DNA of 64,000 nucleotides from Candidatus Blackburnbacteria bacterium RIFCSPHIGHO2_12_FULL_44_25 (GTDB lineage Bacteria; Patescibacteriota; Microgenomatia; UBA8517; UBA10165), in NCBI GenBank assembly GCA_001816455.1, contig MHCB01000038.1, forward strand, positions 7,965 through 71,964. The letters are read 5' to 3'. The notes under the pieces are model-generated. The model ran no database searches. It was not told where the DNA came from and saw nothing but the letters and a program-made list of their open reading frames with translations. A program made the position numbers and the translations under genes. Below, one piece after another: positions 41,101 through 44,100 of the stretch (position 1 is the stretch's first letter; each line of letters begins with the position of its first letter).

Positions 41101-44100
41101 TGGTTTTATGGCCACTGGACGAGTAGGTACAGAAAAAATTCAAAGTTATCAAAAGGGAACTTATCAATCTGCAGCTGGACAGGCATTTTTGGAAGAAGCG
41201 GGTGAAGCGGCGCAAGGAGTTGCGCAAGATCTTGCATTTGTGGCAGGCGCAAATGTGGCGATTGCCATTGCAGCAGAAGCTGGCGCTGGGCGGATTGTTG
41301 GTTGGGGAGTTGGCAGGGTAGCGGGTACGGAGGTTGGCCAGGCAGTAGCAAAATTTGCAACCCACAGTATCTTAAAAATTCCAAGTGAGGAGGTATTGTC
41401 GGATGTTACCCGCGAAGGTTTGGATGTAGCAAAGAGAGAGTATCTAGAGGCGCAAAGAGCAAGAGTTTTGGCATTTGGAGATGAGGCTGTTTCGGGAAGT
41501 GAAAGCTTCTTGCAGAAAAATGCTGACGAGGCGAGAAGGAAGTTAGAGGAGGCATATCGAGGGGCTTTTGGGGATGACGCTGATAAAGTTTTGGAGTCTG
41601 CCGTTTCCAAGCTTGATATTATGGCCGGGGCTGATGTTTCGCAGATTGTGCGGGAGCAAGGAGAAGAATATGCTCAAAAATTTGCCGGTCAAACTTCTGT
41701 TTCCGATGCTGTAGTTAATCCTTCTGTTGTTGCGGATAATGCTTTCTCCCCCGCCGATCAGGTTGTTGCTGCATCATCAAGGCAAGGAAGGGTTGTTTTG
41801 GAATCAATTCCGGACGGGGCAGCAGGGGTTGTGGACGATATACCAACAAACTATCCCGGCGTTGTTGCGGAAGTGGCCGAGGTTACTGATTCGATTGACG
41901 CTCGAGGCGGAGGTGGATTTGTACAAGATGCGCAGGATGCTGTTGGGGGTTTCTTTGGTCGTTTTAGGAGGAGCGAACTTGATCCCCTAGAGGCAGTCGA
42001 AGACAGGATTGCTGCGGAGGCTGTTGGAGATGTTAGTGCAAGAACGGTTGATGTCTCCCCTGCTACTTCCAGATTTACAAAAATGACTCCAAAGTCAATT
42101 GACGATGCAGTTGAGATGACAGAGGATGCGCGTCGCTTTAAAGCGAGACTGGATGACTTGGCGAGGCGAATAGATGGAGTAACTGATAACACGGTAAGAA
42201 GGCAACTGGAGGAGGAAGTTGATCAAACCAGGGGGACACTTATAGTGATCCGTAAGAAAGCGGACGAAGCTATTGAGGAGATACAGTCTTTTAGGCAAGA
42301 CGATGAGGTGGTAAGTCGGATTAAGGCCGAGATGGAACAAACACGTGTCATCGCTTCCAATGTTGGCGGAGGAAATGTGTTTGACACTTTAAAAACAAGA
42401 TTTGAGGAACTCCCGCTTCCTTCTTTTCTTCGCGGTGGAAGTGAGTCACAATTAGCACCCTATAAGTTTGAGTTTACACCCGAGGAACGGTTACGTATTG
42501 AAGCGGCAAAACAAGACCTTAAGGTAAAAAGAGAAGAGGCTCTTGCAAGATCTCGTGCGCAAGTTGAAGCAATTAAAAAAGAACAGATCGATGCTGAGGC
42601 AAGAGTAGCAGCAGAGACAGTAGAAGCACAACAGCGAAGGCAAGCGGCGCAGCTTGCCCAAGATGAGGCCGAACGCGCTCGGCTAATTGCGGAATCGGAA
42701 GCATCTGCCCAAAGAGCAAAAGCAGCAGAAGCTGAAGCCCGAGCAAAAGCACGAACCGCAAACGAAGAACAAGCAAGACAAGCCTCACGCGAGCAGGACG
42801 TTGCAGCAAGAGATGAGGAAATAATAGAGGCACAAATTATTGCAGAAAGGCAAGTTGCCGATGCTCGTGCTAAGGAGGAGACAAGACAACAAGCAACTGA
42901 ATTTTTGAGCAGGCAGAGGGAACTTGAGGAACGGGCGAATCGCGCAAAATCGGCAGCCGATGAGGCAGAGCGCAAATTAAGACAGGTTGATAATGCAATT
43001 GCGGCAAGACAAACTGAGATTGATGTAACTATAGCGCAAGCATTTGCGCTGAGAGATCAATATCAGATTGTCAAAGATTTGGAGAGTGACCTGCTTGATA
43101 GTATACCAGAGCAGGCGCATAAGATATTGGTCTCTGCAGATTATTATAAAATTCTGGGTGTATCTCCTAGTGCTACCACTGATGAAATAAATCGGGCGTA
43201 TCGTTCGCTGTCGAAAAAATGGCACCCTGATGTAAGTTCTCAAGATCTGGAGGCGGCGACATTGGCGTTTAAAAAGTTGACGTATGCAAAAGACGTTCTT
43301 ACTGATACTATACCTATTCAGGGTGCTACTGGGGTATATGTTCGTAGAAATTATTACGATGCGGCATCACATGATGCAATAAGGCAGCAGATATTGGCAA
43401 AGGACCCCAGTAATTTTTCTGACGCCGTTGCCTATATCAATAGACAACAGGCTAAGATGAGCGAAGCAGCTCGTGCAGTGGAGCAGGCAAACCAAAGAGC
43501 TCAGCAGGCGGTACGAGCTGCGGAGCCTTTGAATTCACGAATTGAGGAGCTTCAAAGAGCAAGAGAGCAATATTTACAAAGTGCCGAGCAACACACAAGA
43601 ACTGTACAAGCCGCAGAGCAAGATTTGCAAACAGCAGCGCGGGAGGTTATGCAAGGGCAACCTTTGACACCTACCCAGGTAGCTTACCGTGAGTTGAATG
43701 ATGCTGGTCAGGAGTATACGGAGAAACTGGCCGAAGTGCGTACCCTGAGGGAGGAGCGAAAAGTTGCCGCAAGCGGTGGTGTTGCCGGTTTAGATTTTGC
43801 CGACGCGACTTCCCGATTGGATGCTGCCGAAGTTGAATTAAAGCAGGCTGCAGAGCGAGTGAAGGCGGCGCAGCTTGCATATCAAGACTCGGTCCAATCT
43901 CCTGTGGAGCGGGCCGGAGGGGCAATATCGGACTTTTTTGATCAGGTTACGTCGTTCTTTGGGCGCGGACGGAGTGCTAGTCAGGTAGCAGACGCGACCG
44001 AGGTTGTAGCTGACGTTGGGAGAGTGGCTGGGCCATCGCTACGGTTTGTTCAACCAACTGCGCAGCAGGTGGTTCCTGCTTCTCCTGGTCTAAAAGTTGG

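Follow-up and report, generated by a model that had tools for sequence, protein, structure and literature searches.

What does a J-domain do in the middle of a giant protein that appears to be made for export? The question is raised by a 64,000-nucleotide stretch of contig MHCB01000038.1 (positions 7,965 to 71,964; hereafter the window, with positions counted from its first letter), from Candidatus Blackburnbacteria bacterium RIFCSPHIGHO2_12_FULL_44_25. This tiny groundwater bacterium belongs to the candidate phyla radiation (CPR), or Patescibacteria, a group that accounts for much of bacterial diversity and whose members are believed to lead a life attached to other cells; to my knowledge, almost nothing is known of the molecules they use on their partners. 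I report here that the J-domain of this giant is real and intact, and of the class C (J-domain-only) type. I tentatively read the giant as an exported carrier of cytoplasm-dependent modules, whose J-domain would act on the Hsp70/DnaK of a partner cell (probability about 0.4).

The J-domain and the giant protein that carries it

The gene and the J-domain within it are delimited as follows.

38108..48769, + strand: giant open reading frame (ORF), 3,553 amino acids (OGY10250.1 / OGY11231.1; UniRef100_A0A1G1V7H1, Candidatus Blackburnbacteria)
43139..43306, + strand: J-domain helices I–III, residues 1678–1733 (PF00226, E 5.3e-16; J-domains in the PDB, down to E 4.6e-11)
43223..43231, + strand: HPD tripeptide, residues 1706–1708, the single HPD in the entire giant
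43340..43390, + strand: possible helix IV, VRRNYYDAASHDAIRQQ, residues 1745–1761, read from the sequence and preceded by an 11-residue insertion relative to DnaJ

The original prediction, made from the letters alone, had placed a canonical J-domain with its HPD motif in the middle of a giant protein, and had proposed alignment to PF00226 as one check. This alignment bears it out: the Pfam family DnaJ matches at 58.9 bits (gathering score 27.8), over profile positions 1–55 of 63, and is the sole significant Pfam match across the whole giant. A phmmer search of the PDB sequences returned 60 J-domain structures and no other matches, with DNAJB8 as the best of these and E. coli DnaJ at E 1.6e-10, identical at about half of the positions. 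The HPD of the giant aligns to those of E. coli DnaJ, human DNAJB8 and human DNAJB6, and its J-domain is 45–58% identical to canonical ones. The peptide quoted in the prediction corresponds to residues 1678–1733, and its residue numbering was right, but the nucleotide start given for it (43135) lies four nucleotides upstream of the true one and out of frame, so that 43135–43330 translated as it stands runs into stop codons.

Read from the PDB alignment, helix II keeps the basic residues R1696, R1699, K1703 and K1704, the equivalents of E. coli DnaJ R22 and R27 are Asn and Ser, and that of R36 is Val. The PDB alignments end past helix III, and the helix-IV-like sequence, VRRNYYDAAS, is a reading of the letters. 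The domain looks functional, and stimulation of Hsp70/DnaK is predicted from its sequence. The NCBIfam DnaJ matches are likewise confined to the J-domain, with TIGR02349 at 55.4 bits (cutoff 377) and reaching residue 1786. Neither a Gly/Phe-rich region, nor a zinc finger, nor the DnaJ C-terminal domains were found by Pfam and NCBIfam in the whole giant, and residues 729–2471 hold no cysteine at all. The giant is therefore not a DnaJ proper.

The same 3,553-residue protein was found by exact look-up on seven contigs (JGI, ENA and NCBI; several metagenomes), GCA_001816425.1 included; as these are independent, I reject a frameshift or fusion artefact. The sources give it as a hypothetical protein from Candidatus Blackburnbacteria, of the Microgenomates group of the CPR, and UniRef as a "J domain-containing protein". 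That it has a J-domain is thus on record in the databases, but no paper on the protein or on its family was found.

The remaining features of the giant, from the N- to the C-terminus, are these.

38108..38206, + strand: Sec-type signal peptide, residues 1–33 (MRVFLKK, a hydrophobic core, and cleavage between TPVRA and SQ), hydropathy peak 2.15, read by eye
38225..38584, + strand: acidic, proline-rich low-complexity linker, residues 40–159, from composition
38585..40291, + strand: cysteine-rich part, residues 160–728, with 40 of the giant's 42 cysteines
41216..41311, + strand: internal hydrophobic segment, residues 1037–1068 (LAFVAGANVAIAIAAEAGAGRIVGWGV), the sole one in the giant; Kyte-Doolittle 1.71
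41906..41971, + strand: short motif GGGGFVQDAQDAVGGFFGRFRR, first copy, residues 1267–1288
42482..43105, + strand: stretch of 208 residues without Pro or Gly, residues 1459–1666, rich in Ala, Glu, Arg and Gln
43376..43900, + strand: helical segments past the J-domain, residues 1757–1931; four stretches of ~40 residues, with Pro or Gly between them
43913..43975, + strand: FFGR motif, second copy, residues 1936–1956
44120..44782, + strand: PP2C/SpoIIE-like phosphatase domain, residues ~2005–2225; weak profile matches, aspartates kept
45521..45580, + strand: two-cysteine loop, C2472...C2491 (CKVLGASTDSVLGTSTTGGC), ~30 residues before the protease-like module
45662..47437, + strand: conserved protease-like module of ~600 residues, residues ~2519–3110; an N-terminal beta part and a helical HExxH+E (gluzincin-like) domain
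47792..48766, + strand: conserved C-terminal beta-rich region, residues 3229–3553; two repeats of ~75 residues, GWN...W...DFP

That the giant bears a signal peptide, as originally claimed, holds in so far as its N-terminus looks like a Sec signal and has homologues in four related giants, which share a ..N-L-I..YP..YAQ motif and end in YAQ-type sites. The assignment is a reading and not the output of a predictor: the n, h and c regions, a hydrophobic stretch of ~21 residues and an A-x-A-type site were recognised. The first 200 residues contain 37 Pro and 34 Asp or Glu, and the cysteine-rich part holds three CC-x5-C-x9-C-x6-C-x6-C modules and has no Pfam match. This linker and disulfide-rich N-terminal third looks like a surface or binding region. 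Residues 729–1036, between the cysteine-rich part and the hydrophobic segment, carry no assignment, and an acidic helical region follows the segment.

I interpret the Pro- and Gly-free stretch that precedes the J-domain as a single long alpha-helix, or coiled coil, that runs into it and would measure ~30 nm if continuous. Two copies of a ~21-residue motif (GG.F..D..D.V..FFGR.R) flank the ~650-residue block formed by this long helix, the J-domain and the helices past it; similarly, short LNPF[NK]K motifs at 45593–45622 and 47525–47551 flank the protease-like module. Neither the FFGR nor the LNPF motif was found in relatives of the giant. The spacing between hydrophobic segment and phosphatase-like domain is ~950 residues in the giant, of which the bracketed block makes up ~650, and ~400 in a related giant (P0022). 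This suggests that helix, J-domain and helices were inserted as a single unit.

The PP2C-like assignment is built from weak profile matches and an alignment. In Pfam, SpoIIE (E 0.0042, 17.5 against a cutoff of 25) and PP2C_2 (E 0.015, 15.2 against 24) both fall below the cutoff, and NCBIfam gives Stp1_PP2C at E 2e-4; the region is, in addition, 37% identical to a stand-alone protein (P0028) that itself scores above the PP2C/SpoIIE cutoffs. The metal-binding aspartates D2009, D2022, D2167, D2213 and D2214 are all retained, within the four motifs QDAF, ADG, SDG and DDV. Between this domain and the two-cysteine loop, at 44885–45520, lie two repeats of ~100 residues, each consisting of a beta part (..ARxxxG..) and a helix (LxxxGVxxxTxxxIxxxLxRxxKK); a similar unit lies behind the PP2C domain of P0028.

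In the protease-like module, an HERVH motif at residue 2861 provides H2861, E2862 and H2865, and E2896 follows further on. The HExxH and the Glu ~35 residues downstream are invariant among homologues of the module, which in this respect, and in its thermolysin-like fold, agrees with the gluzincins. A PDB sequence profile search with the module, and one with the C-terminal region, gave chance-level matches only, and a tblastn search of plasmid and phage collections with the module gave no match. The ~600-residue HExxH+E module is an undescribed family, as is the two-cysteine loop element. The C-terminal region matches three related proteins by BLAST (P0019, P0020 and P0023); its AlphaFold2 model consists of beta strands with a pLDDT (predicted local distance difference test) of 58.

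Relatives, neighbouring genes and the cysteine pattern

What relatives share with the giant is the module from residue ~2519 onward. It is found in six further giants, with lengths between 1,629 and 4,375 amino acids, and in ~20 stand-alone proteins of ~600 amino acids without a signal peptide; related giants have their ends in common with it as well. The other giants follow one plan, in which a signal peptide or anchor is followed by a cysteine-rich part, a single segment of moderate hydrophobicity and a cysteine-poor remainder. This remainder contains true PP2C domains in P0023 and P0022, the latter also with a GNAT acetyltransferase, and an FHA domain in P0038.

An exhaustive HMMER search with residues 1660–2859 against 1.84 billion clustered representatives returned no protein with the J-domain plus its flanks, clustering being such that relatives of 50–90% identity would be hidden. 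The 90% cluster of the giant has 17 members, all at least 99.3% identical. A scan of genome contigs found a single locus (L008), with two tandem protease-like modules and no J-domain. Two further approaches were uninformative on absence: scans of metagenome contigs (residues 1960–2500; alignment A2) gave no matches and also missed contigs known to bear the gene, and a word-indexed protein search missed the giant's own cluster, both with residues 1640–2260, which gave two weak J-domain matches, and with the protease-like module (single sequence or 17-sequence profile), which gave nothing. Since no distant relative that was found has a J-domain, it is likely to be a lineage-specific addition to a modular family, neither family-wide nor decayed.

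The contig of L008 is labelled "uncultured Gammaproteobacteria". Its first ORF (2–7357) encodes a giant of more than 2,450 amino acids, which has a protease-like module of its own and a pair of repeated units of ~250 residues without assignment, and a second protein (7633–9993, 786 amino acids) carries another such module. A fragment of ribosomal L7Ae, beside a run of N, closes the first ORF, and the assembly may be chimeric. A stand-alone protease-like protein, P0168, lies on L012 (1100–1585 and surroundings), a 101-kb contig with a SET-domain gene and many genes without a Pfam match, a content that recalls those genomes of intracellular bacteria that are rich in effectors. Its cluster-mate P0026 lies on a contig (L007) with a GC content of 39%.

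In the window, the giant gene lies between two surface-type genes that are paralogues of each other.

37281..38111, + strand: upstream gene, 276 amino acids, with a membrane anchor and an fn3/PAP-N-like domain; overlaps the start of the giant (ATGA)
48779..49984, + strand: downstream gene, 401 amino acids, with a signal peptide, fn3 and Big_13 domains, and a C-terminal LPVSG with a hydrophobic tail

A homologue of the upstream gene (31% identity) directly precedes the gene of the related giant P0023, and the fn3/giant gene pair is thus conserved. This setting agrees with a role of the giant at the surface. The downstream protein ends in SLPVSG and a hydrophobic tail (crude insertion free energy, dG, of −2.85), which resembles a sortase-type sorting signal minus the usual basic tail.

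The cysteines of the giant are very unevenly distributed. Residues 729–3553 contain two in 2,825 positions, compared to 0.92% in the 27 other ORFs of the window (binomial P 1.8e-9), a ~13-fold depletion. The protease-like module shows the same tendency across the family, with 0.10% cysteine in the giants versus 0.77% in 15 stand-alone homologues free of signal peptides (~8-fold). Those cysteines that do occur are paired: in the parts of five giants that follow the hydrophobic segment, 20 of 20 have a partner within 35 residues, at module junctions, and C2472 and C2491, the only two beyond residue 728 of the giant, form such a pair.

In P0021 and P0022, paired cysteines bracket six copies of the pattern C-P-x-x-x-x-x-[IV]-P-x-A-[YFL]-A-[QA]-...-P-C, each at a module junction.

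P0021, residues 815–834 and 1302–1323: cysteine-bracketed loop copies with an IPVAYAQ core
P0022 (gene at L009 1796–14923), residues 2136–2156, 2818–2836, 3348–3369 and 3772–3789: cysteine-bracketed loop copies with an IPVAYAQ core

The loop core resembles the cleavage end of the family's signal peptides (..YPILIYAQ, ..YPVLVYAQ). The loop of the giant occupies the homologous place and is less similar in sequence. By analogy with AB toxins, these junction loops would be closed by a disulfide and may be nicked outside the cell.

The hydrophobic segment seems a poor stop-transfer anchor. Its crude Hessa dG is +4.5 kcal/mol, with +5.6 to +7.1 in the relatives, compared to −1 to −3.3 kcal/mol for the true anchors that the two neighbouring genes encode. 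Asn, Glu and Arg all occur within it, and across the giants an Asp, a Glu or an Asp-Pro stands mid-segment. The exclusion of cysteine, the pairing of those that remain and the weak hydrophobic segment together favour export of the whole chain.

Where the J-domain may act

J-domain, PP2C, FHA and GNAT domains need cytoplasmic partners, be it Hsp70 with ATP, phosphoproteins or acetyl-CoA, and the C-terminal part of these giants must therefore work in some cytoplasm. The argument of the original prediction, that an exported J-domain makes sense only if it reaches a cytoplasm, is strengthened by the PP2C-like domain next to it and by the FHA and GNAT domains of the relatives. The question is then whose cytoplasm this would be.

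In the reading that I favour, the giant would be exported to the surface of the CPR cell upon removal of its Sec signal peptide, beside its two fn3 partners. Its N-terminal third would serve as surface or binding region, and the C-terminal two thirds would contain the cargo modules, namely the J-domain, the PP2C-type phosphatase and the gluzincin-like protease. Upon contact with a partner (host) cell, the cargo part would reach the partner's cytoplasm, where the HPD loop would trigger the ATPase of its DnaK/Hsp70 and so tie the chaperone to the giant or to its targets. The J-domain with its HPD, the series of modules, the distribution of the cysteines, the weakness of the hydrophobic segment and an operon shared with surface proteins are read directly from the sequence; whole-chain export, entry into a second cell and an effect on the Hsp70 found there are inferred. 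There are precedents for parts of this scheme: giant CPR surface proteins are thought to act in host contact, with Vampirococcus as an example (PMC8080830), and the effector HopI1 engages the Hsp70 of plants through its J-domain and raises the ATPase activity of that chaperone (PMC8150971).

Several points weigh against this reading. No known translocation apparatus or delivery domain was found in the giant with Pfam and NCBIfam, which report the J-domain and a weak PP2C only. The partner or host of Blackburnbacteria, if any, is itself hypothetical. The fold search of the C-terminal region, run with the low-confidence model described above, was uninformative, and no extracellular fold was assigned to it. 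The J-domain is absent from all detected relatives, both the giants and locus L008, and is thus not essential to the mechanism of the family. Finally, the position of the hydrophobic segment after the cysteine-rich part is conserved, and its flanks are acidic on the N-side and basic on the C-side in five of five giants, the pattern expected of a membrane helix with its N-terminus outside and its C-terminus inside.

The strongest alternative, which I consider possible yet somewhat doubtful, is that the giant is a receptor-like type I membrane protein. Once the signal peptide is cleaved, the cysteine-rich ~1,000 residues would be outside, residues 1037–1068 would span the membrane, and the remaining ~2,500 residues would lie in the producer's own cytoplasm, where the J-domain would recruit its DnaK to a membrane-anchored scaffold, in the fashion of DjlA. 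There is one internal hydrophobic segment per giant, directly behind the cysteine-rich part (an equivalent is seen in five other giants), and this position, together with the positive-inside flanks, favours a J-domain in the producer's cytoplasm. The domains concerned (J, PP2C, FHA and GNAT) are ordinary cytoplasmic signalling domains, and the FHA domain of P0038 also matches the cytoplasmic domain of YscD, an inner-membrane protein of the type III secretion system. The stand-alone protease-like homologues, which have no signal peptide, are hence cytoplasmic in their own organisms. Against this stand the high insertion energy of the segment relative to the anchors encoded next door and the Asp, Glu or Asp-Pro at its middle; nor would a cytoplasmic location explain the ~13-fold and ~8-fold cysteine depletions and the paired junction cysteines.

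DnaK and DnaJ keep some Sec substrates export-competent, and the J-domain could similarly serve the giant itself, by recruiting the producer's DnaK to the untranslocated C-terminal ~1,800 residues, which would thus stay unfolded until they are threaded through Sec, with no role of its own once outside. The great length of the protein, its Sec-type signal and the mid-chain position of the J-domain, upstream of large folded modules, agree with this. However, relatives that are as long or longer, up to 4,375 amino acids, do without a J-domain, and the cytoplasm-dependent character of the other modules is left unexplained; I regard this alternative as improbable.

Very improbable, in my view, is a variant of partner-cell action in which the J-domain is part of delivery itself. 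Mitochondria and the endoplasmic reticulum pull proteins in by means of Pam18 or Sec63 with Hsp70. By the same principle, the J-domain, at the tip of its rigid helix of 208 residues, would be first to enter the partner's cytoplasm and would recruit the partner's DnaK/Hsp70, whose repeated binding would ratchet the cysteine-free chain across the membrane and pull in the PP2C domain and the protease-like module. Reduction of the disulfide loops would then free the modules, and the giant would amount to a toxin-like protein with an adaptor for its victim's import motor.

The equally remote idea that this is an extracellular J-fold no longer active on Hsp70, be it a leftover of domain shuffling or a three-helix module reused for binding, draws on the domain being a lineage-specific addition in a single near-clonal population and on the replacement of R22, R27 and R36 of the E. 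coli protein, but sits badly with an intact HPD, which a decaying domain is expected to lose first, and with an intact hydrophobic core and a score typical of working J-domains.

The family, with its giants that string together a J-domain, PP2C, FHA, GNAT and a zinc-protease-like module, is a testable candidate for the molecules that CPR bacteria use on their partners. The cases of chaperone hijacking known to me, such as that of HopI1, target eukaryotic hosts; should the J-domain act on a partner's Hsp70, this would be the first case that I know of in which one bacterium hijacks the chaperones of another bacterium, or of an archaeon. If the J-domain is instead cytoplasmic in its producer, the family would be a new kind of giant receptor-like scaffold, coupling the cell surface to DnaK and phospho-signalling. 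Modular giant exoproteins are known already, as are J-domains with a site of action outside their producer; what is new is that the two are combined, that this occurs in a CPR bacterium, and that the protein has a gluzincin-like module and cysteine-bracketed loops at its junctions.

Genomic context and comparison with known systems

The window is otherwise ordinary chromosome, with genes for phenylalanyl- and threonyl-tRNA synthetases, a Mur ligase, trigger factor, a GTPase, a DinB-like polymerase and nine tRNAs; because of the synthetases, Mur ligase, trigger factor and tRNAs, I reject a phage or plasmid origin. At 54957–55622 (+ strand) it encodes an AbiEii-type nucleotidyltransferase toxin (PF08843, E 1.5e-16). 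In matching contigs, this gene is directly preceded, with an overlap, by an ORF of 67 amino acids, and the gene of an RHH_1 protein lies close by; the AbiEii-type gene and its small neighbour are probably a toxin-antitoxin pair. An ORF of 755 amino acids without a Pfam match (31071–33338, − strand) contains, in its C-terminal half, the sequence FPGSFAPWTKGHEDL, which resembles the (H/T)xGH motif seen in NadD and other nucleotidyltransferases. The searches also brought up two proteins of unusual architecture, unrelated to the giant save for the J-domain: P0034 (679 amino acids), with six tandem J-domains, each with its HPD (Pfam DnaJ, six stretches, E 1e-121), and P0039 (380 amino acids), with three.

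Among known systems, the closest at the level of the domain are the class C (type III) J-domain proteins, with which the giant shares a J-domain of ~56–80 residues and the HPD between helices II and III. It differs from these in that its J-domain sits mid-chain in 3,553 amino acids with an export signal, and in having 11 residues inserted ahead of the putative helix IV; on it, the NCBIfam models for DnaJ reach 55 bits, against cutoffs above 300. The E. coli protein DjlA is tethered to the membrane, with its J-domain on the cytoplasmic side of the producer, and NCBIfam matches the giant to it weakly, over the J-domain (E 7.5e-5). DjlA is, however, a protein of 271 amino acids with an N-terminal anchor and a C-terminal J-domain, and the giant, its own anchor being doubtful, is no more than a possible member of a DjlA-like group.

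TopJ, of the Mycoplasma terminal organelle, also combines a J-domain with an acidic proline-rich region, in an adhesion-linked setting and a reduced genome. Its NCBIfam match on the giant (E 7.7e-9, 34.6 against a cutoff of 300) covers the J-domain only, and TopJ is cytoplasmic, with an N-terminal J-domain. Sacsin (4,579 amino acids) is likewise a giant multi-module protein with a single J-domain (bioRxiv 10.1101/2021.07.14.452331), but is eukaryotic and cytosolic, has no export signal, and its other modules are unrelated. For the ~600-residue module, the best fold match is to the gluzincins (M1/M61 aminopeptidases and thermolysin, M4), with HExxH and a downstream Glu in both.

The plan proposed for the giant resembles that of the MARTX, large clostridial, diphtheria and botulinum toxins: an exported binding part, a moderately hydrophobic region, and cargo that acts in a cytoplasm. 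RTX or CROP repeats, a cysteine protease domain, a type I secretion signal and a translocation domain were not found in the 3,553 residues with Pfam and NCBIfam, and, since their defining domains are missing, the giant is a member of neither the MARTX nor the large clostridial toxins. The cysteine-bracketed junction loops recall the nicked, disulfide-linked loops of AB toxins. The likeness to all these toxins is architectural only.

The last comparison is with HopI1, a type III effector of Pseudomonas syringae with a C-terminal J-domain. A small protein that lacks a Sec signal, it is injected through a type III system and targets a eukaryote, and its homology to the giant is limited to the J-domain. 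It nevertheless leaves its producer to act on the Hsp70 of a host, and in this it is the working model proposed here for the J-domain of the Blackburnbacteria giant (PMC8150971).

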